Positions 3,008-48,673 of a stretch of DNA of 64,000 nucleotides are shown piece after piece. Origin of the DNA: an uncultured Bdellovibrionales bacterium (GTDB lineage: Bacteria; Patescibacteriota; Minisyncoccia; Moranbacterales; GWC2-37-73); assembly GCA_964484505.1 (NCBI GenBank), contig CAZAFB010000003.1:37044-101043 (forward strand), read 5' to 3'. Below the pieces are notes generated by a model. That model saw only the letters and a program-made list of their open reading frames with translations, searched no databases and was not told where the DNA came from. Each line of letters opens with the position of its first letter. Position 1 is the first letter of the stretch. The translations under genes were made by a program, and so were the position numbers.

Positions 3008-4522
3008 GTGAAATATATGAACAAAGACTACATCATTGATCAATTAAAAAAACAGATCGAAGGCTTCAAGACTGAGGCGACAACTGAGCAGGTTGGGAAA
3101 GTTATTGAGGTGGGAGACGGAGTGGCACGCATCTCGGGTCTTAGCAATCTTATGGCCTCAGAGATGGTAGAGTTCCCGAATGGGGAAATCGGCGTGGCGC
3201 TTAATCTTGAAGAAGATCGCGTCGGTGCGATGGTGCTTGGTGATTATCTCGGTATCAAAGAGGGCGATGAAGTGAAAGCGACCGGTAAAATACTTTCCAT
3301 CCCGGTCGGTGAAGGAATGATTGGACGTGTGATTGATCCGCTTGGAGCACCAGTAGATGGCAAGGGTGATATAAAATCAGATGCATATTATCCAGTAGAG
3401 AAGATTGCTCCCGGCGTAATTACTCGTAAGTCGGTGCATCAACCGGTGCAAACCGGTATCAAAGCGATCGATGCCTTGATTCCAATCGGACGTGGACAGC
3501 GTGAATTGATCATCGGCGATCGTCAGACTGGAAAGACTGCTGTGGCGATTGATACCATCATCAACCAGAAAGGGCAGAACATGAAATGTATCTATGTTGC
3601 GATCGGGCAGAAGGAATCGAAAATTGCCAGAATTTTGGGCGAACTTGAAAAGAACGGTGCGATGGAATATACGACAATTGTTGTGGCTGGCGCTTCGGAC
3701 AGTGCGGCTCTTTCCTACATTGCTCCTTATTCAGGTTGTGCACTCGGTGAATATTTTATGGACAAAGGTGAGGACGTGCTTATTGTGTTTGATGATCTTT
3801 CCCGCCATGCATGGGCATATCGTCAAATTTCTTTGATCTTGAAACGCCCACCAGGACGCGAGGCATATCCGGGAGATGTTTTCTATTTGCACTCACGCCT
3901 TTTGGAGCGCTCTGCTAAGCTTAATGAAAATTTCGGCGGCGGTTCGATGACAGCGCTGCCGATCATTGAAACGCAGGCAGGTGACGTATCCGCATATATT
4001 CCGACCAATGTTATTTCCATTACTGACGGACAAATTTTCTTGGAAACGGATTTGTTCTACAAAGGAGTACGTCCGGCATTAAATGTGGGTATTTCCGTTT
4101 CACGTGTGGGAGGAGATGCACAGATCAAAGCGATGAAGAAAGTTGCCGGAAAACTCAAATTGGAACTTGCACAGTTCCGCGAACTCGAAGCGTTTGCGCA
4201 ATTCGGATCCGATCTTGATGAAAAAACTCGCATCCAGATTGAACGCGGACGCCGCACAGTGGAAGTTTTGAAGCAAGGACAATATGAACCGATGGCAGTT
4301 GAACACCAAGTGGCTATTCTCTATGCTCTCATAAACGGCTTCATGGATGATGTGGCAATAGATAAAATTAAGGAATGGGAAAATGACTTCCATAAATATC
4401 TCGACACGCAAGCGAAAGAAGTCTTGTCGCTAATTACCGAAAAGAAAGAATTGAGCGAGGAAGTTGTGGCGGCACTGGAGAAAGCGATTAAGGAGTTTAA
4501 AGAGATATATCAAACGAATTAA
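3008..4522 (+). CDS. atpA: ATP synthase F1 alpha subunit
   Basis: Walker A motif GDRQTGKT in a 504 aa alpha-subunit homolog. Confidence 0.95.
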
Positions 4523-4609: not shown

Positions 4610-7003
<2,394 letters not shown>

Positions 7004-7060
7004 GTTGGATAAAATAATTAAGCGTATTTATTAAAAACGCTAAATTTATAATCAGTGTAT

Positions 7061-7220
7061 TTTGAATTCAAAATTCACCTAATTGCCTAATTCACCTAAT
7101 AAAATTTCAAATAATCAAATAAGACATATTTTAGATATTTGTGAATTTGGCATTTTATTAGATGAATTAGGTGAATTAGAAATTTGGTGAATTTGTAAAA
7201 ATGAATTTGGAATTATAAAC
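7061..7220. repeat. Palindromic element family B, copy 2
   Basis: AAATTCACCTAATTGCCTAATTCACCTAATAAAATTTCAAAT is followed by ATTTGGCATTTTATTAGATGAATTAGGTGAATT. It lies between atpD and atpC. Confidence 0.65.
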
Positions 7221-8775: not shown

Positions 8776-8912
8776 AAAAATATGCCCGGTAGTGAAAATT
8801 CAAAAATAATCGCAGGAGCACGAAATTTTTGTATTATTGAATAAATTTTTAAATAAAAAATAAACAAATGAAATACTTTTGGGCAAAGCCCATTTGAATT
8901 TCTACTACCGGG
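8776..8912. repeat. Family C element with 20-bp terminal inverted repeats (CCCGGTAGTGAAAATTCAAA ... TTTGAATTTCTACTACCGGG) ending 1 nt before the ATG
   Basis: The two ends are near-perfect reverse complements. The last 41 nt are identical to the copy at 47857-47985. It contains a GGGCAAAGCCC mini-hairpin. Confidence 0.65.
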
Positions 8913-8913
8913 T

Positions 8914-10017
8914 ATGGAAACAACAAAAAAAATTCTTAAGATTGCTTTGATTATCATCATTGCGATTGTTTTGGCGTTCGCATTACTTCTGGCTTTGCGT
9001 GTTGCCAAAAACGAGAAGGGCGGTTCGCAAACGGGATATGATTCCGCTGGAACAATGCCGATGTCGATAGACGCGGGCAGAAGCATGATGGGCATTGAAA
9101 ACGGCGAAGGGATGGCTGATTTCAATATGCCAAACCCTGCATTGCAAGAAAGTGCTGCGATGCCTGCGCAGAAAGGAGAAGTTGTGGCGAGAGATGTGCA
9201 AGTCGCAGAGAAAAAAATCATCAAAGACGGATATATAAATGCCCAAGTGGATAATGCTGACAATGCAGCCAGGGATATTTCCGGAATTGCCAAACGTTTG
9301 GGCGGTGATGTCGAATCGATGAATTTCCGCAAGACCGCACAGAACGTAAAAAGCGGCACGATTGTCGTACGTGTTCCGTTTATCAATTTCGATACGGCTT
9401 TTGAAGAAATCAAGCAAGTTGCAACATTGGTCAGGAGCGAATCGGCTAATGCGCAAGATGTGACCAGTCAAGTTGCCGATTTGGAAGCTCGCCTCAAAAA
9501 CAAGCAGGCTGAAGAAGAATCTTTTCAGCAAATTTTGGATAATACGAACGGCAAGACCGAAGATGTTTTGATGGTAACGCAAGAACTATCTCGCGTACGC
9601 GGGGAAATTGAACAACTTGAAGCGCAGAAGAAATATCTTGCATCGCAAACGGATATGTCCACGATCACGGCAAATATTTCCGAAGATGTGACGGTTGGCA
9701 CCGCGACCTCCTGGAGGCCATGGCAGATTGCCAAGACTGAATTCGCCAGCATGCTTAAAGATTTGCAAAAATTGATTGGAGCATTGATTGTGATTGTTGT
9801 TCGTCTCACTCCGATACTCCTGGTGTTTATTCTGTTCTTCCTGATTGTTTTTTGGGTAGTGAAAGCTATTATTAAATCAATTTTTTGGAAAAAGAAGCAA
9901 AAGGAGATGCAACAAAAAACAGAAGAACCGATAACTCCTGCTGGCCCTGAGTCGATAAAGAAAGCTCCACGCACAAGAACGATAGCTGCAAGACGTATTA
10001 TTTCACGAAAAAAGTAA
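8914..10017 (+). CDS. DUF4349-like membrane protein (N-terminal TM, central domain, C-terminal TM)
   Basis: This architecture and central region are typical of DUF4349 proteins. Confidence 0.6.
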   Translation: METTKKILKIALIIIIAIVLAFALLLALRVAKNEKGGSQTGYDSAGTMPMSIDAGRSMMGIENGEGMADFNMPNPALQESAAMPAQKGEVVARDVQVAEKKIIKDGYINAQVDNADNAARDISGIAKRLGGDVESMNFRKTAQNVKSGTIVVRVPFINFDTAFEEIKQVATLVRSESANAQDVTSQVADLEARLKNKQAEEESFQQILDNTNGKTEDVLMVTQELSRVRGEIEQLEAQKKYLASQTDMSTITANISEDVTVGTATSWRPWQIAKTEFASMLKDLQKLIGALIVIVVRLTPILLVFILFFLIVFWVVKAIIKSIFWKKKQKEMQQKTEEPITPAGPESIKKAPRTRTIAARRIISRKK

Positions 10018-12172: not shown

Positions 12173-12635
12173 AACACTGCTAAGTGAAAAATTGAGGCGT
12201 GGGAGATGTTAACTGACATCGACCGCGCCTTTTATTTTGCAAAGAAATTTCTTGAATTTCTTTGCACGCGGACAGATGCGGACGAGACGCAGAATTACGC
12301 GGAAAAATATCAAAACCGATTCGAATCTACGAATATCCGCAAATAAACTAAAAATGCAAAATACTTCGATACTCGAAAGTATCAAAGTATTTGACCAATT
12401 TATTTTTGAAGAAATTTTTTGATAAAAAAACAAAGCCATATGGCCTTGTCCTTATGTGCCGCGGGAGAGACATCTCACTCGCTCTGACTTTCAGTCTGAG
12501 CTCTTTGAAAACCCACGGTTTTCAAGACTTTCCTTCACGGGAAAACTCAGGTTTTCCCGACCCCTTTCCTGGTTCGAGTCTCCAAAGAAATAAAATTTAA
12601 AAGCCAACTATAAATAGTTGGCTTTTAAATTTCAG

Positions 12636-12719
12636 TACCGCGGGAGAGACTCGAACTCTCATGATATTGCTATCGCTGGATTTTGAGTCCAGTGCGTCTA
12701 CCAGTTCCGCCACCGCGGC
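12636..12719 (-). tRNA. tRNA-Leu(CAA), type II with a long variable arm
   Basis: Manual fold: acceptor GCCGCGG/CCGCGGT, D-loop GAACTGGTAGA, anticodon stem CTGGA/TCCAG with loop CTCAAAA, variable arm GATAGCAATATC, T-arm GAGAG-TTCGAGT-CTCTC. Confidence 0.75.
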
Positions 12720-12866
12720 GAGTATTGATATTTAGGCTATTCCAAGCCTTTTTACCTCTATATGATAAACGATTGAAAAGAGATTGTCAATGTGATAATA
12801 TAGATACGCGGTTAAGGTTATGGTAACGAGGCCAGTATCGTAAAAGGGTGATGATAACACGTCAAA

Positions 12867-13271
12867 ATGCAAGAACCAAAACAAACAATTAAAAGTTTTC
12901 GTGATTTGGAAGTTTATAGAAATACATATGATGCTAGTATTGTGGTTATGAAAGAAATAGTGCCGTTGCTTCCGGATTCGGAAAAATATGATCTTAAAGA
13001 TCAATTATCCAGATCAAGCAAAGCTGTTCCGCGGCTCATTGCTGAGGGTTATGCAAAAAGACATCAGAAAGCAGGATTCCAAAAATATCTAGACGATGCC
13101 ATGGGAGAATGCAATGAGACCATAGTTGGACTTGAACAATGTTGTGATATTTATGATATCAATAAAGAAAAATGCCAAAAATTAATTGACACATATGATA
13201 AGTCTGGAAGACAATTATACAGATTGTCAGAAGCATGGAGTCGATTTAAAGACGGAAGACGTAACCATTAA
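12867..13271 (+). CDS. Four-helix-bundle protein (23S rRNA intervening-sequence protein family)
   Basis: FRDLEVYR ... DLKDQLSRSSKAVPRLIAEGYAKRHQKAGFQKYLDDAMGECNETIVGLE matches the IVS four-helix-bundle family. It is flanked by an imperfect inverted repeat, GGTTATGGTAACGAG and ATCGTTACCGTTACCC. Confidence 0.7.
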   Translation: MQEPKQTIKSFRDLEVYRNTYDASIVVMKEIVPLLPDSEKYDLKDQLSRSSKAVPRLIAEGYAKRHQKAGFQKYLDDAMGECNETIVGLEQCCDIYDINKEKCQKLIDTYDKSGRQLYRLSEAWSRFKDGRRNH

Positions 13272-13313
13272 ACGAAACGGGCATCGTTACCGTTACCCTT
13301 TGACGAAGCAAGT

Positions 13314-14084
13314 ATGGCTAAGATAATTTCACTCATCAATCAAAAAGGCGGAGTGGGGAAGACGACCACTGCCATAAATCTCGCAACTTATTTGGCGGAT
13401 GCCGGTAAGCTTGTTTTGCTCGTTGATCTTGATCCGCAGGGGAATGCCTCCTCTGGACTGGGCATTGATGTGCGCAGCGTAACCCAGGGCCTCTATCATG
13501 CCATCATTGGTACTTGTAACCCCCATGATGTAATTGTGAGAATGAAAGAAATCGGACATGACATCATTCCAGCAACTCAGGATTTAGCAGGGGCGGGTGT
13601 TGAATTGGTGCACTATGACAATCGCGAGTTCAAACTATATGACGTGCTCAGACAAATCCGCACCGAATATGACTACATTATCATCGACAGTCCGCCTAGC
13701 TTAGGACTCCTAACCATAAACGGTTTGGTGGCGAGCGACGCAGTGATCATCCCGGTGCAGACAGAATACTTTGCTTTGGAAGGATTGAGTCAACTTTTAC
13801 AAACCATACAGCTCGTGCAACAGCATTTGCAACCGAAACTGGAAATTATGGGCGCAGTGCTCACTATGTATGACCGAAGGAATCGTTTGTCGCGCCAAGT
13901 GGTCAAGGAAATGCGAGAGCATTTTCCGGGGCATGTTTTTGATAGTGTGATTCCGCGCTCTGTTCGTCTAGCGGAAGCACCAAGCTATGGAAAATCCATT
14001 CTTAATTTCGATAGCCTTTCCAAAGGCGCAAGATCTTACAAGGCTTTAGTGAGGGAGATATTGGAAAAAGACAGTAATAAGTGA
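13314..14084 (+). CDS. parA: Chromosome partitioning ATPase ParA/Soj
   Basis: Deviant Walker A KGGVGKTTTAINLA. Confidence 0.9.
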   Translation: MAKIISLINQKGGVGKTTTAINLATYLADAGKLVLLVDLDPQGNASSGLGIDVRSVTQGLYHAIIGTCNPHDVIVRMKEIGHDIIPATQDLAGAGVELVHYDNREFKLYDVLRQIRTEYDYIIIDSPPSLGLLTINGLVASDAVIIPVQTEYFALEGLSQLLQTIQLVQQHLQPKLEIMGAVLTMYDRRNRLSRQVVKEMREHFPGHVFDSVIPRSVRLAEAPSYGKSILNFDSLSKGARSYKALVREILEKDSNK

Positions 14085-14213: not shown

Positions 14214-15137
14214 ATGGCTGCTCAAAATTTTGGTCTCGGCAGGGGATTATCATCACTTATACCTAACGCAGGCACTGCGCCACAGACAGATGCGCCGGTA
14301 GGAAAACGTCCCGTGATCGGCGAAGATGATTCGATTCGCGGTGACAAATATGTCGTGGAAATCGATATTGACTCAATTGTGCCAAATCCGCAACAGCCGC
14401 GCATCCGTTTTGACGAGGAAAAATTGGCCGACCTGGCTTCATCAATCAAAACACATGGAATCATTCAGCCGTTAATAGTAAGTCGCGATGGCAATCAATA
14501 TGAAATTATTGCCGGTGAGCGTCGTTATCAGGCGAGCAAAATTGCCGGACTGAAGAAATTGCCGGTGATTGTTCGTGAAGCCGGGGAATTAGAGAAGCTT
14601 GAGTTGGCGATAATCGAAAATATTCAACGTCATGACCTTAATGCAATTGAAGAGGCGAAAGCATATCAAAAATTGATAGATGAATACCAAATGAATCAGG
14701 AGGAGGTTGCTTTCAAGATGGGGAAGAGTCGCAGCTTGGTAGCTAATAAAGTGCGTTTGTTGTCGCTGCCTGTGGAAATTCAACGGGCGCTTATTGAAGG
14801 CAGGATTACCGAGGGTCATGCAAAGGCGATTTTGGCAATTTCCAACCCTGAAAAACAACGCGCTCTATATGAACTTATTCTCAGAGATAATTTGACCGTA
14901 CGCCAAACTGAAGACAAGACCAAAGATATTTCGGTCAAACCGCATAAACGTGTCGTCAATGTCGACCCTGCATTAAAAGAAATTGAAGAAACTCTGATTG
15001 GCGCTCTTGGCACGAAAGTTAAAATTTCCAAAGCCGGCAATGGCGGGAAAATCGTGATTGAATATTATTCGCAAGAAGATTTGGATGCGCTACTAAATAA
15101 GATACGAACCACTGAAAATATAAGAACCACTGATTAG
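14214..15137 (+). CDS. parB: Chromosome partitioning protein ParB/Spo0J
   Basis: GLGRGLSSLIP, the ParB box IAGERRYQASKIAG and an HTH. The last codons and the TAG stop lie inside the repeat-family-A terminus. Confidence 0.9.
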   Translation: MAAQNFGLGRGLSSLIPNAGTAPQTDAPVGKRPVIGEDDSIRGDKYVVEIDIDSIVPNPQQPRIRFDEEKLADLASSIKTHGIIQPLIVSRDGNQYEIIAGERRYQASKIAGLKKLPVIVREAGELEKLELAIIENIQRHDLNAIEEAKAYQKLIDEYQMNQEEVAFKMGKSRSLVANKVRLLSLPVEIQRALIEGRITEGHAKAILAISNPEKQRALYELILRDNLTVRQTEDKTKDISVKPHKRVVNVDPALKEIEETLIGALGTKVKISKAGNGGKIVIEYYSQEDLDALLNKIRTTENIRTTD

Positions 15138-15619
15138 CACGTGATTAAAATGATTGCACTGATCATAAATGCAGCATGAAAAAATATGTTGATGACAAAT
15201 ATTATAAATCTGAAGTAACCGGCAGCATAATTAACTGCGCGCAGAGAGTTCATCGCGAGCTAGGCAATGGATTCCAAGAAGTCATTTATCAAAAAGCTTT
15301 AGAAATAGAACTAAAACGTGCTGGCCTAAAGTTTGAACGAGAAAAGGAGATGGCTATTTATTATGAAAACGAACTCATCGGAACCAGGAGAGTTGATTTT
15401 CTTGTTGATAAGGATATTATGGTTGAACTAAAAGCAACTACAAAACTGGAAGACGTCAATGTGGCACAACTCATAAACTATATAGAGGCATATAAGGTAA
15501 AAGTAGGCCTGCTTATAAACTTCGGCTCAAAAAGTTTGGAAGTGAAACGTTATGTAAAATGATCCCTATCACGTGTAATCAGGGAAATCAGTGCTAATCA
15601 GTGGTTCTCTAGTGGTTCT
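15122..15619. mobile_element. Family A element carrying a GxxExxY (PD-(D/E)xK-like) gene between 21-bp terminal inverted repeats
   Basis: Left end AGAACCACTGATTAGCACGTG (15123-15143). Right end CAGTGCTAATCAGTGGTTCTC (15589-15609), plus a partial second copy TAGTGGTTCT. 19 of 21 positions match as a reverse complement. Confidence 0.55.
15176..15562 (+). CDS. GxxExxY family protein (PD-(D/E)xK nuclease-like fold)
   Basis: NGFQEVIYQKALEIELKRAGLKFEREKEMAIYYENELIGTRRVDFLVDKDIMVELKA ... GLLINFG matches the GxxExxY family. Confidence 0.75.
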   Translation: MKKYVDDKYYKSEVTGSIINCAQRVHRELGNGFQEVIYQKALEIELKRAGLKFEREKEMAIYYENELIGTRRVDFLVDKDIMVELKATTKLEDVNVAQLINYIEAYKVKVGLLINFGSKSLEVKRYVK

Positions 15620-17093
15620 TTTTCAGCGCTCTTCTTATGTGGGATTTTGCCACAGAAGTGCGCGCGAACTTAAGCCAGTCGCCATTGGGCGATTTTCTAT
15701 CTTTGGAAGTTATAATCTCGATCACTTGTCCGTTTTTGATGATGTGATCCAATGGTATCATCTTCCCGTCAGCCTTGGCGCCGACCGTGTGGTGTCCGAT
15801 TTCGCTGTGGATGGCATAGGCGAAATCTATAGCGGTGGCTTCCTCCGGAAGATCGATAATATCGCCGCGGGGAGTGAATGCAAAAATGTGATTGCGAAAA
15901 AAATCTATTTTCAAGGTTTCCAAAAATTCTTGATCATCTCGACCTATTTCCGTTTGCCACTCACGCAATTGTTTGACCCAAACCAATTCTTTTTCGGTAA
16001 CAAGCGGCTTTTTGCTCATGAATAAAATATTTTTCCAGCTTTTTTTGGCTTTTTCACTATAAATCCAATGTGCTGCAATACCGAACTCGGCTTCATCATG
16101 CATTTTCTGAGTGCGTATTTGTACTTCCAAAATTCTGCCTTCCGGACCGAAAATAGTGGTGTGAATGGATTGATATCCATTTGGTTTAGGCAGGGATATA
16201 TAGTCCTTTATTCTACCGATCATGGGGCGATATTTTTTGTGAACTATGCCCAACGCCTCATAACAATCAGTAACTTCCGGTACTATTATGCGCACTGCTG
16301 AAAGGTCATAAATTCTGTTTATATCCATGTCGTGCTTCTTGAGTTTTTCAAAGAGACTATAGAGACTTTTGGCTCTCCCGTGAATTTCCAAGACGCTTAT
16401 ACCAGCATTGGCCAATTCTTTGCGAAGCTGTTTGATCGCCTGATTCACATAAACCTCTCGCTCCTTGTAACTTTTTTTAACCAATTCCTCGGCGTAGACA
16501 TAATTTTCATGGTCAAGATATTTAAAAGAAAGGTCTTGCAATTGAGTTTTGATTTCGCCGATTCCCAAACGGTTTGCCAGGGGCACAAAAACTTCCATGG
16601 TCTCGCGGGCGATGCGCTGCTGTTTTTCCGGGGGGTTGTGTTCCAGTGTCCGCATGTTGTGCAGGCGATCCGCCAGTTTTATGATAACGACTCGGATATC
16701 CGCAGCCATGGCCAAAAACATTTTGCGCAGATTTTCCAAAAAATATTCTTCATGGGAACCACGCAATTTCAATTTGCCCAATTTGGTTACGCCGTCAACC
16801 ATGTGAGAGATTTCACTATCGAAATTCCTTTCAATTTCTTCCAGAGTATATGCTGTATCTTCGGGAACATCATGAAGTAATCCAGCAGCTATTGTTTTAG
16901 CTCCCATACCTATTTCAGCCAGAATTTTCGCTGTTGCCAGGGGATGTTGAATATAGTCGTCGCCACTGCGTCTTTTTTGACCGCAGTGCGCTTTTTTGGC
17001 AACCTCAAAAGCCTTGCGGATTAAGGCATCTTTTTGCTTGTCCAAAGGGAATTTAAACGCTTTGATAATATCTTCAATGACTAATTGCTTCAT
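15609..17093 (-). CDS. Bifunctional (p)ppGpp synthetase/hydrolase, RelA/SpoT family, no ACT domain
   Basis: HD domain (HDVPED), synthetase domain and TGS domain. The stop codon lies in the family A repeat. Confidence 0.9.
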   Translation of the reverse strand: MKQLVIEDIIKAFKFPLDKQKDALIRKAFEVAKKAHCGQKRRSGDDYIQHPLATAKILAEIGMGAKTIAAGLLHDVPEDTAYTLEEIERNFDSEISHMVDGVTKLGKLKLRGSHEEYFLENLRKMFLAMAADIRVVIIKLADRLHNMRTLEHNPPEKQQRIARETMEVFVPLANRLGIGEIKTQLQDLSFKYLDHENYVYAEELVKKSYKEREVYVNQAIKQLRKELANAGISVLEIHGRAKSLYSLFEKLKKHDMDINRIYDLSAVRIIVPEVTDCYEALGIVHKKYRPMIGRIKDYISLPKPNGYQSIHTTIFGPEGRILEVQIRTQKMHDEAEFGIAAHWIYSEKAKKSWKNILFMSKKPLVTEKELVWVKQLREWQTEIGRDDQEFLETLKIDFFRNHIFAFTPRGDIIDLPEEATAIDFAYAIHSEIGHHTVGAKADGKMIPLDHIIKNGQVIEIITSKDRKSPNGDWLKFARTSVAKSHIRRALKKNH

Positions 17094-41288: not shown

Positions 41289-41401
41289 AATATCTTTCAG
41301 CACAGTGTGGAAAGGAAAGGGGTCGGGAAAACCTGGGTTTTCCCGTGGCGGAAGTACTGAAACCGCTGGGTTTCAGGGAGCGAAGCGACTCCACAGTGGG
41401 C
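41279..41401. repeat. Hairpin-rich insert at the 3' end of rpsI, bounded by the 13-bp direct repeats CTCCACAGTGGGC
   Basis: Direct repeats at 41266-41278 and 41389-41401. Between them lie GGGAAAACCTGGGTTTTCCC and CTGAAACCGCTGGGTTTCAG hairpins. The 38-bp core recurs at 12533-12570 in inverted orientation. Confidence 0.55.
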
Positions 41402-47710: not shown

Positions 47711-47803
47711 CTTAAAAAAGCTTATTTTGCTAGATATATACTACTATGTTGACAAAGTAGAAAAATCTGGTATTCTGGATACGTTACAAATGAACACTAA
47801 ATG

Positions 47804-47832
47804 CACCGCCCATGAGGCGGCGGCATTTTTTA
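47804..47832 (+). terminator. Terminator-like hairpin (CACCGCCCATGAGGCGGCGGCATTTTTT)
   Basis: GC stem and T-run. It is flanked by the 11-bp direct repeats AACACTAAATG at 47793 and 47833. Confidence 0.55.
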
Positions 47833-47856
47833 AACACTAAATGAGGGAAAAATATG

Positions 47857-47985
47857 CCCGGTAGTGAAAATTCAAAATAGTAATTTCGGGCATTTATAGT
47901 TTTACAAGCGTGATAAACGAAAGATAATCAGATAAAATATTAAAGGTTCTTTTGGGCAAAGCCCATTTGAATTTCTACTACCGGG
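47857..47985. repeat. Family C element, copy 2, ending 1 nt before the greA ATG
   Basis: Same 20-bp terminal inverted repeats and an identical 41-nt 3' segment (CTTTTGGGCAAAGCCCATTTGAATTTCTACTACCGGG) as 8776-8912. Confidence 0.65.
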
Positions 47986-47986
47986 T

Positions 47987-48442
47987 ATGGCAAGACTTAT
48001 TACCAAGGAAGGGTTGAAAAAACTGCAGGACGAATTGGAGCATCGCAAGATCCAAATCAGACAGGAAATAGCTAAGGCGATCAAAGAAGCCAAAGAACAA
48101 GGCGATCTTAGTGAAAATGCCGAATATTCCGAAGCTAAATCGCAGCAAAGTGAAAATGAAACTCGTATAGCTGAATTGGAAATGGCGATCAAAAACTCAC
48201 AGGTTGTGGAGAAGAGTGAACAGTCCGCCAATGTGGGAATTGGTTCGACTGTGACAGTCAAATTCAATGGCAGCGAGATGGATTTTGAAATCGTGGGATC
48301 AAATGAGGCTGATCCTGTGCAGCGAAAGATTTCCAATGAATCTCCTCTGGGCAAGGCCTTTATGGGACGCGCCAAGGGAGATGAGGTTGAAGTGGCTACT
48401 CCGAAGGGGATGATTAAATACAAAATCCTGAACGTGAAATAG
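47987..48442 (+). CDS. greA: Transcription elongation factor GreA
   Basis: N-terminal coiled-coil (LTKEGLKKLQDELEHRK, DLSENAEY) and C-terminal FKBP-like domain. Confidence 0.9.
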   Translation: MARLITKEGLKKLQDELEHRKIQIRQEIAKAIKEAKEQGDLSENAEYSEAKSQQSENETRIAELEMAIKNSQVVEKSEQSANVGIGSTVTVKFNGSEMDFEIVGSNEADPVQRKISNESPLGKAFMGRAKGDEVEVATPKGMIKYKILNVK

Positions 48443-48482: not shown

Positions 48483-48673
48483 TTGCCAAAACGCATATTT
48501 TGGCTTAAAATTAGGTCATGCTATTAAAAACTTACGCATTTACTCTCAAGTCAAAATGAGCCTCTATGCACTTTGACTATTAACATTTGCCAAAGAAGTG
48601 CAAAAACTCATTTCTTTGTTTCGAGCAAACGCGCAAGTTTTTAATTTGAATTTCTAAATCATAAAATATTTAT

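Follow-up and report, generated by a model that had tools for sequence, protein, structure and literature searches.

The stretch of DNA analyzed here (64,000 nt of contig CAZAFB010000003.1, hereafter the window) holds two unrelated genes, one encoding a DUF4349 protein and the other GreA, that are preceded by copies of the same short element with inverted ends. The question raised by this locus is whether the element is a leader that controls both genes or a piece of mobile DNA that came to rest at their start codons; a sequence-only reading had kept both options open. We consider it likely that the two copies are non-autonomous, gene-less relics, similar to miniature transposable elements bounded by inverted repeats (MITEs), of a family of GIY-YIG elements that sits at start codons, occurs mainly in Patescibacteria (candidate phyla radiation, CPR) and borrows the translation signals of its host. 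Insertion is supported by an empty orthologous site and by decaying orthologous remnants. The flanking duplication, the start-codon specificity (30 of 34 sites), the in-frame nuclease open reading frame (ORF) of longer relatives, the origin of a short copy by deletion and the covariation of the termini were all observed.

Layout of the two window copies

Allowing up to three mismatches, the terminus CCCGGTAGTGAAAATTCAAA was found four times in the window, at 8785-8804 (+), 8893-8912 (-), 47857-47876 (+) and 47966-47985 (-). Shuffled windows gave a mean of 0.01 matches to this pattern, and none of 100 shuffles gave four. The matches delimit copy 1 at the DUF4349 gene (8785-8912, 128 nt) and copy 2 at greA (47857-47985, 129 nt), both on the + strand. 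The sequence-only reading had reported both copies and placed the second correctly, but had started the first at 8776; the nine bases left of copy 1, AAAAATATG, are flank, and their sharing with the other copy is incidental. It had also described the termini as reverse complements. They are indeed inverted, but 18 of the 20 positions are complementary and not all: positions 10-11 are GA in the left end, whereas the right end, once reverse-complemented, has AG there. The copies have approximately 25 nt in common at the left end and 37 identical nt at the right end (CTTTTGGGCAAAGCCCATTTGAATTTCTACTACCGGG), a shared 3' stretch with a mini-hairpin that had been given as 41 nt and comes to 42 nt when the subsequent TATGG is counted. 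The interiors are unrelated, as had been seen before.

Both elements stop one base (T) short of the host ATG, as originally noted, with the DUF4349 gene (367 codons) at 8914-10017 and greA at 47987-48442. TATG also lies directly left of each copy; the element thus stands between direct repeats of 4 bp, with a second ATG at its left edge. The proposal that the element delivers the start-codon context holds in part: the element supplies the 20 nt before the start, whereas the ATG itself belongs to a host (T)ATG that was duplicated, and the orthologous empty site described below has a single ATG. The features of both copies are as follows.

8781-8784, + strand: copy 1, left TATG of the target-site duplication (sequence, site table); ATG 8782-8784 is the presumed original position of the DUF4349 start codon
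8785-8804, + strand: copy 1, left terminal inverted repeat CCCGGTAGTGAAAATTCAAA, the GA end (pattern search)
8782-8844, + strand: copy 1, upstream ORF from the left ATG through the left terminus, MPGSENSKIIAGARNFCIIE plus stop, 20 codons (sequence)
8880-8892, + strand: copy 1, subterminal mini-hairpin TGGGC-AAA-GCCCA beside the right terminus (fold; covariation across copies)
8893-8912, + strand: copy 1, right terminal inverted repeat TTTGAATTTCTACTACCGGG, the AG end (pattern search)
8913-8916, + strand: copy 1, right TATG of the duplication; ATG 8914-8916 opens the DUF4349 gene
47843-47847, + strand: Shine-Dalgarno-like GAGGG, 6 nt before the left ATG of copy 2; presumed original ribosome-binding site of greA, which lines up with the stretch preceding the lone ATG at the empty L055 site
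47853-47856, + strand: copy 2, left TATG of the duplication, with ATG 47854-47856 (sequence, site table)
47857-47876, + strand: copy 2, left terminal inverted repeat, the GA end (pattern search)
47854-47880, + strand: copy 2, upstream ORF MPGSENSK plus stop, 8 codons (sequence)
47953-47965, + strand: copy 2, subterminal mini-hairpin TGGGC-AAA-GCCCA (fold, covariation)
47966-47985, + strand: copy 2, right terminal inverted repeat, the AG end (pattern search)
47986-47989, + strand: copy 2, right TATG of the duplication; ATG 47987-47989 opens greA

The two upstream ORFs, of 20 and 8 codons, are the only ones inside the copies. An in-frame fusion of the upstream ORF to the host ORF was considered and rejected, since stops intervene and the distance between the ATGs is 132 nt in copy 1 and 133 nt in copy 2. 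A profile of 26 copies, used together with end modules in nhmmer, returned just these two copies from the window (E = 1.8e-21 and 4.6e-21) and no further ones, intact or decayed. Folded as + strand RNA, the copies reach -41.4 (copy 1) and -41.5 kcal/mol (copy 2), with z-scores of -6.4 and -4.9 that no shuffle equaled, and the predicted fold sequesters both AUGs. No Rfam 15 family was found over either copy; the only matches at gathering score in the window were two tRNAs, and permissive scans over the copies gave sub-threshold noise only (e.g., GcvB at 20 bits versus a gathering score of 42). The idea of a mobile promoter was likewise abandoned: a promoter-like TTTACA-16-GATAAT occurs in copy 2 without a counterpart in copy 1, and such matches are near chance level in AT-rich DNA.

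Insertion at greA and at other start codons

Whether greA orthologues in relatives have the element, a check that the sequence-only reading had proposed, was followed up by retrieving the DNA around the closest non-identical GreA proteins and aligning it to the window greA locus. By its GreA homologues, the window belongs in or near Moranbacteria. In L055 (GreA 81% identical) the site is empty: the same leader terminator hairpin as in the window is followed by TTTTTTAATCACTAAAACGGAAAAAC and a single ATG-GCA, and the site aligns with the left flank of the window copy joined to its right flank. L052 (GreA 91%) carries the same insertion, its interior having been shortened and a terminus mutated (the ATG is preceded by CTACTACTGGAC), and in L053/L054 (GreA 90%) approximately 43 nt of a degenerate right end are left, the left arm having been lost. 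Contigs of the same population (L044-L051) hold copies identical to those of the window. The empty site and the remnants indicate that the element entered the ancestral greA start site, that this insertion is old and that it is decaying in sister lineages. A cis-regulatory RNA common to the two genes, as suggested before, is not supported, given orthologues that are empty or decayed without a left arm, and the missing Rfam match; a leader hairpin required by greA would not be expected to show such states.

A comparison with the contig L050 was considered as evidence of purifying selection on the element and rejected. The 276 nt around copy 1 are identical, yet all 155 of 155 strain differences lie at 10.4-12.4 kb, so that the identity around copy 1 reflects a recombination mosaic and is uninformative on constraint.

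The greA leader contains further features upstream of the element. A promoter-like TTGACA-16-TATTCT with a TG (47749-47776) is followed by a strong intrinsic-terminator hairpin with a T-run (47804-47830), and AACACTAAATG occurs on either side of this hairpin (window 47749-47830 region). The promoter-terminator-greA arrangement is retained in L053 and L055 and looks like a conserved short leader transcript or attenuator, its layout being reminiscent of the Escherichia coli greA leader RNA GraL. On the other side of greA, a population variant (L045, ~3577-3612; window 48559-48562) carries an insertion of approximately 39 nt in the spacer to the next gene.

The search for the 20-bp terminus elsewhere, also proposed earlier, was productive. 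A scan for exact termini yielded 15 loci in species-representative genomes and 28 loci in metagenomes of the Joint Genome Institute (JGI), nearly all of them from Patescibacteria, and no match in viral contigs; a phage origin was set aside as the termini are absent from the viral contigs scanned. The named hosts are Moranbacteria, Buchananbacteria, Saccharibacteria, unclassified Patescibacteria and one metagenome-assembled genome labeled Bdellovibrionales. A match in Undibacterium is single-ended and of an AA variant, and therefore looks like chance. Each detected terminus pair has one GA end, and the partner is an AG end except in two pairs.

After deduplication, the site table comprised 32 sites, to which two Buchananbacteria sites were added (34 independent sites). 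Gene starts were judged from ORF length and Pfam coverage. At 30 of these 34 sites (28 of the 32 tabulated and both Buchananbacteria sites), the element is followed directly by a start codon whose ORF has 70 codons or more or is cut by the contig end. The duplications measure 3-5 bp, with 4-bp repeats at most sites; the flanking repeat is mostly TATG, otherwise ATG, ATGA, TATGA, TGGA, CATG or TACG. At L040, L005 and L013, whose duplication is offset by one base, the start codon is restored by the final base of the terminus (A|TGGAA, G|TGAAA). The four exceptions to this placement are L007 (TACG, within another palindrome), L011 (CATG), L032 (no repeat) and L004a (nested by another copy). For comparison, TATG occurs 551 times on both strands of the window, 27 times at gene starts and 81 times in intergenic DNA. 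From this crude window census, the probability of finding at least 28 of 32 sites at starts is approximately 2e-13, even if non-coding TATG sites alone were tolerated. By eye, no consensus past (T)ATG was seen in the target flanks of the tabulated sites.

The genes that carry sites are functionally unrelated and more than 25 in number. Ten host ORFs are genuine genes, in which a Pfam domain starts no more than 30 residues from the ATG after the element, namely RF-1, RelA/SpoT, an RluD-like pseudouridine synthase, an amidase, RNase J, an ABC ATPase, lumazine synthase, NifU, S16 and FtsK.

One of the exceptional sites has a structure of its own. At L007 (1675-1900; also in L022 and L030), a canonical short element lies at TACG and splits another perfect palindrome at its center (AGCCCCTCAACTGCGCTCGGGACAAGCCCTACCGGGCGTA | element | TACGCCCGGTAGGGCTTGTCCCGAGCGCAGTTGAGGGGCT). 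At its inner ends (CCCGGTAGGG), this palindrome is similar to the termini of the element itself. It may be the end-to-end junction of a related element.

The covariation analysis, the third check suggested at the outset, was carried out on ten aligned terminus variants, with left-right pairing counted against 500 shuffles. Pairing reached 94.5% of cells versus 81.6% in shuffled sets, and none of the 500 shuffles was as high. Nine of the 20 positions have changed on both sides, and slid registers pair at 27-54% only. This pattern fits a hairpin or cruciform, or two equivalent protein-binding sites. However, position 10 is G·U in ten of ten variants and position 11 is A·C in nine of ten despite covarying neighbors. 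By analogy, this fixed imperfection looks like the marks that enzymes working on a folded single strand make use of, and it would not be expected of equivalent binding sites; it is our main hint on the mechanism. One subfamily of short copies, including both window copies, additionally carries a T-run and a 5-bp mini-hairpin just inside the right terminus. This hairpin covaries as well (GGGC/GCCC, GAGC/GCTC, AGCC/GGCT, AGGT/ACCT), with four of five pairs changed on both sides and 92% of cells paired.

Nuclease-bearing relatives and a proposed mode of movement

Eight independent full-length elements of 292-342 bp were recovered (L036, L005/L024, L056, L066, L076, L082, L083 and L084). They all follow the same plan, in which TATG and a terminus lead into an in-frame GIY-YIG ORF, a stop and the second terminus, followed by the start codon and the host ORF on the same strand. 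The GIY-YIG ORF of approximately 95 codons is the sole gene in all eight, and no longer element with these ends was found among the retrieved loci. In L036, the ends lie 342 nt apart; the ORF opens at the flanking ATG and reads across the left terminus (MPGSENSK-MIMFYVYILES..., 101 codons), and after it come the stop, the right terminus, TATG and the host ORF. A Buchananbacteria assembly contains at least two copies of a 323-nt element, which break the contigs L005/L024 and L013/L023, and here the ORF enters via the AG end (MPGSRNPNS-MFYYVYILES...). Multiple identical copies of the nuclease gene can thus be found at different genes within one assembly. The remaining six (L056, L066, L076, L082, L083, L084) were retrieved by exact-protein look-up. 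They have diverged termini and the same plan, with an ORF of 95-103 codons from the flanking ATG, and their hosts include genes for a class II tRNA synthetase, a DegT-type aminotransferase and an epimerase. In seven of the eight full-length elements, the nuclease stop lies 19-26 nt before the host start codon.

The encoded proteins (85-103 aa) consist of a single GIY-YIG domain (PF01541, E = 6e-19 to 2e-18), and the only Pfam families found in them are of the GIY-YIG type (PF01541, PF10544 and PF13455). The closest solved structures are UPF0213 protein BH0048 (1zg2, E = 5.6e-5) and then SLX1. A protein search returned 3049 relatives at E ≤ 1e-5. Among the best 120 of these, 81 start exactly with the peptide encoded by the terminus (MPGSENS, MPGSETS, MPRSETS, MPGSRNS and others) and a further 11 carry it after a short upstream extension (92 of 120 in total). 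The linker between this peptide and the GIY-YIG core varies by whole codons, indicating that the reading frame is being maintained. A link between long and short copies is provided by the 158-nt copy of L032, which follows the 323-nt L005-type element collinearly over its first ~135 nt before skipping to the far terminus, so that at least one short copy was born of an internal deletion.

Both junctions are also a source of misannotation. In L076 (1478-1512), the host tRNA-synthetase gene is called from inside the nuclease ORF, upstream of the ATG after the terminus. P0002, P0017, P0049 and P0112 are further cases of junction misannotation, and some nuclease ORFs lack a stop and read through the right terminus (...STTGY...). 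Given miscalled starts and stop-less ORFs, public annotations are unreliable at both junctions.

A further small gene was seen in L008 (3250-3850), where an 84-aa GIY-YIG gene, 44% identical to the L005 protein, lies among three tandem tRNA 5' halves (GGGCCCGTAGTTCAGCTGGTTAGAATGCCTGCTTTG...). Only the last of the three copies extends into a full tRNA, and the gene looks like a different family member targeting a tRNA gene.

From these arrangements a mode of action can be proposed. An intact element of about 290-345 bp between imperfect termini of ~20 bp would take over a host start codon, usually duplicating the 4-bp TATG. The promoter, the ribosome-binding site and the original ATG of the host would then open a frame through the terminus (M-PGSENS...) into the nuclease, and the second ATG, right after the far terminus, would leave the host ORF intact. 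Ribosomes ending the nuclease ORF 19-26 nt upstream would reinitiate at the duplicated host start codon. In the window copies, the nuclease ORF appears to have been lost, the upstream ATG opening only the 20-codon (DUF4349) or 8-codon (greA) ORF, which the host ribosome-binding site (GAGGG, 47843-47847, at greA) would now serve. As the 20 nt in front of it are terminus, the second AUG lacks its own Shine-Dalgarno sequence. In such gene-less copies, a stem of ~20-24 bp might loop the insert out, which would place the GAGGG of greA approximately 10 nt from the second AUG; alternatively, translation of the short upstream ORF might melt the left arm or the stem and expose the second AUG. The former option has a parallel in genes 38 and 25 of phage T4, where a hairpin of which ~20 nt are looped out bridges a split ribosome-binding site. 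The stem discussed here could likewise bring the Shine-Dalgarno sequence near the AUG, but the loop-out would be 128 nt instead of ~20 nt. As the element sits at essential genes and has long been present at greA, expression is evidently preserved, and the copies are most probably baggage that the host tolerates, not regulators.

As to the enzyme behind the mobility, we tentatively propose the small GIY-YIG protein itself. It would probably move the element by acting on a folded single strand with paired termini, in analogy to the Ssn nucleases discussed below. The family would then represent an unrecognized class of minimal transposon (~0.3 kb) that recognizes and duplicates start codons and parasitizes host signals, with a folded single-stranded intermediate probably marked by the G·T/A·C imperfection. 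Within the same tentative proposal, ribosomes would be handed on to the host ORF, and the window copies would be non-autonomous offspring.

The window copies and their kin share several features with known systems. The designation as MITE-like given by the sequence-only reading proved apt: the copies are short (below ~500 bp), lack a mobility gene, have terminal inverted repeats and a target-site duplication, occur in many genomes at unrelated genes, and, at greA, have an empty counterpart in a relative. Their longer same-ended relatives are the eight elements described above, which have a GIY-YIG nuclease as sole gene and no established transposase; what appears new, as far as the sequences tell, is a MITE whose parent is a nuclease-only element. 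The Correia elements of Neisseria are MITEs that measure 100-160 bp, end in terminal inverted repeats and are flanked by a short target duplication; they often lie just upstream of genes and form a long hairpin in mRNA. In this general layout, size, inverted repeats, duplication, position upstream of genes and hairpin transcript agree with our element, whereas a known DDE-transposase parent is missing here and the target is a start codon instead of the TA of Correia elements. REPIN/RAYT systems and the palindromes of IS200/IS605 are inverted doublets of ~100 nt that need one small, repeat-flanked nuclease-type gene, and imperfect stems mark strand or orientation in them. The hairpin-forming ~100 nt, the single small nuclease gene and the imperfect stem are again comparable. 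However, IS200/IS605 uses a Y1 HUH enzyme instead of GIY-YIG, makes no target duplication and has subterminal instead of terminal hairpins; the duplication and the GIY-YIG enzyme rule out an IS200/IS605 derivative.

The nearest published system is Ssn/NTS, in which GIY-YIG enzymes of ~94 aa cut only single-stranded DNA beside a hairpin repeat and are encoded by repeat-flanked genes in an 'IS-like' layout (Chenal et al., Nat Commun 2025, PMC11893778). Shared features are the GIY-YIG-domain-only protein of ~95 aa, the position of its gene between inverted copies of a repeat that is also found without the gene, and the non-coding nature of the repeats, which adjoin genes. In contrast, the published Ssn-related motif HGTCWYN(0-2)YYVSBRHN(0-5)WNVSBRGN(0-2)RNCYNB, a regular expression that does match the NTS consensus, had no match in the window copies or in six full-length elements with 100-nt flanks. 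The arms of our elements are 90-300 nt apart and pair with each other, whereas Ssn repeats are self-contained hairpins of 20-50 nt. Furthermore, target duplications, exact start-codon placement and a nuclease ORF translated through the repeat from the host ATG set the present elements apart, as do their hosts, the Patescibacteria, which are not mentioned in PMC11893778. The free-standing GIY-YIG homing genes of T4-like phages (Seg; review PMC2988022) are similar in being selfish genes wedged among host genes and in using host signals. They differ by an extra DNA-binding domain and by homing to one cognate site in one conserved gene, compared with domain-only proteins of ~95 aa, more than 25 unrelated start codons, and inverted termini with duplications. 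A classical homing endonuclease gene was therefore rejected, as there is no DNA-binding domain and the targets are many and unrelated. Full-text searches of open-access papers turned up no account of GIY-YIG elements that have inverted termini and occupy start codons.

Several points weigh against our interpretation. Nothing seen by eye in the flanks past (T)ATG accounts for how start codons would be distinguished from the ~500 other TATG sites per 64 kb. The sites were found via exact 20-mers or exact proteins, which favors intact copies, so that diverged or truncated copies at other kinds of sites are under-sampled. No nuclease gene of this family was found within the 64-kb window (tblastn with the L005 GIY-YIG protein), which leaves a partner in this genome unproven. 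To our knowledge, no GIY-YIG enzyme transposes with target duplication or performs strand transfer; these are hydrolytic nucleases, and the mobility step is thus conjecture, with a separate, unseen transposase being possible. The window copies are alike at their ends only and hence are not recent copies of each other. Moreover, the greA insertion predates 9% protein divergence and its termini are still canonical, which hints at constraint or homogenization, neither of which would be predicted for a dead relic. Compensatory changes have preserved the mini-hairpin even in L053, whose remnant lacks the left arm, and this retention could reflect a host-level role. Canonical termini in an old insertion and a compensated mini-hairpin leave room for some selected role.

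The latter observations are the strength of a rival explanation, in which a conserved cis-regulatory leader RNA (attenuator, thermosensor or protein-binding hairpin) has been selected to control translation of greA, DUF4349 and the other carriers. The strong, non-random fold with both AUGs sequestered, the same position relative to the start codon everywhere, the covarying mini-hairpin that outlasts decay in the remnant and the intact termini of the old greA insertion would all agree with it. We nevertheless regard such a leader as decidedly unlikely: one greA orthologue is empty and two others have remnants unable to form the long stem, the carrier genes are functionally unrelated and so are the interiors, the same termini enclose a nuclease gene, direct repeats flank the copies, and Rfam offers no match. 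A second rival is a standard MITE that a conventional transposase (DDE or similar), encoded elsewhere, mobilizes in trans, with the GIY-YIG ORF as passenger or nested selfish gene. Terminal inverted repeats with a fairly constant short duplication are the hallmark of DDE transposition, strand transfer is not known from GIY-YIG enzymes, and covariation of the ends is equally expected of transposase-binding sites. However, all eight full-length elements hold the GIY-YIG ORF only, and a longer element with these ends was absent from the retrieved loci. In 92 of the 120 homologues, the frame from the flanking ATG across the terminus into the ORF is kept despite whole-codon insertions and deletions, which ties nuclease expression to the insertion geometry, and the invariant G·T/A·C asymmetry of the ends is unexpected for two identical transposase sites. 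A conventional transposase is thus unlikely in our estimation.

The single-domain proteins of 85-103 aa could also belong to a domesticated Ssn-like system, the repeats being cleavage or binding sites of a host nuclease that is specific for single strands, modulates DNA uptake or recombination around marked genes, the repeats themselves not being transposable. Ssn itself is a single-domain GIY-YIG protein of ~94 aa whose genes are flanked by their own hairpin sites, in a layout called IS-like in print. The published Ssn-related motif is absent from the elements tested, though, and long-range inverted termini around a variable interior are unlike self-contained hairpins; target duplications, an empty orthologous site and multiple identical nuclease-gene copies at different genes of one assembly also speak against this explanation, which we find very improbable. 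Finally, a chance or low-complexity similarity of two AT-rich upstream regions, the outcome that the sequence-only reading had named as fatal to its proposal, has nothing but the AT-rich context in its favor. It is refuted by four matches where 0.01 were expected, by the nhmmer E-values and by identical 20-mers in dozens of unrelated assemblies, and its probability is negligible.

If the proposed start-codon-sited GIY-YIG family is real, highly reduced CPR genomes carry a very compact selfish element, with one gene of ~95 codons and lacking its own promoter, ribosome-binding site and start codon, that survives on the start codons of housekeeping genes (greA, prfA, relA, rnj, ftsK, rpsP). GIY-YIG nucleases would then join the few enzymes that drive DNA transposition, and Ssn nucleases would be linked to a mobile-element origin. 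For annotation, it matters that many CPR 'GIY-YIG nuclease family proteins' start with the terminus-encoded MPGSENS and that host starts may be called too far upstream, as in L076. Conserved 20-bp ends together with a nuclease of ~95 aa could also seed programmable tools for single-stranded DNA.

Other repeats and variable segments in the window

Several further repeats and variable segments were noted. L050, which is 97% identical to the window over 5.5 kb, replaces ~1.1 kb of it (12233-13315, with tRNA-Leu at 12635-12719 and a 23S-rRNA-IVP-type ORF) by its positions 5555-6185. The replacement segment holds a different tRNA and an adjoining 83-aa GIY-YIG gene of another subfamily without the element termini. 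The 155 substitutions mentioned above lie just before the replacement junction, and this clustering suggests a recombination tract. Beside tRNA-Leu, a structured-looking stretch without an ARAGORN or Rfam call contains one arm (12530-12570) of a 41-nt inverted pair that is 93% complementary (TTCCTTCACGGGAAAACTCAGGTTTTCCCGACCCCTTTCCT); the other arm lies at 41313-41353.

Between 36835 and 40811, four to five copies of a composite repeat of 50-76 nt are spaced 470-2400 nt apart. They are built of ATCGCGAAT and ATTAGTG/ATTAGAG, three of five copies end in ATAA[AC]ATTATGG, and their appearance is that of control regions shared upstream of several small genes. Sequences of the AACCACTGATTAGCACATGA type occur in inverted and direct copies at 833-945, 2417-2510, 15116-15159 and 15591-15620. 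These sequences bracket a segment of ~1.5 kb, with arms at 847-892 and 2465-2510 (96% complementary), and recur near 15.1-15.6 kb; this may be another mobile or invertible element. Two intergenic modules of ~130 nt (1873-2009 and 7047-7187) are 83-92% identical, and their halves are inverted repeats rich in CACCTAATT/AATTAGGTG.

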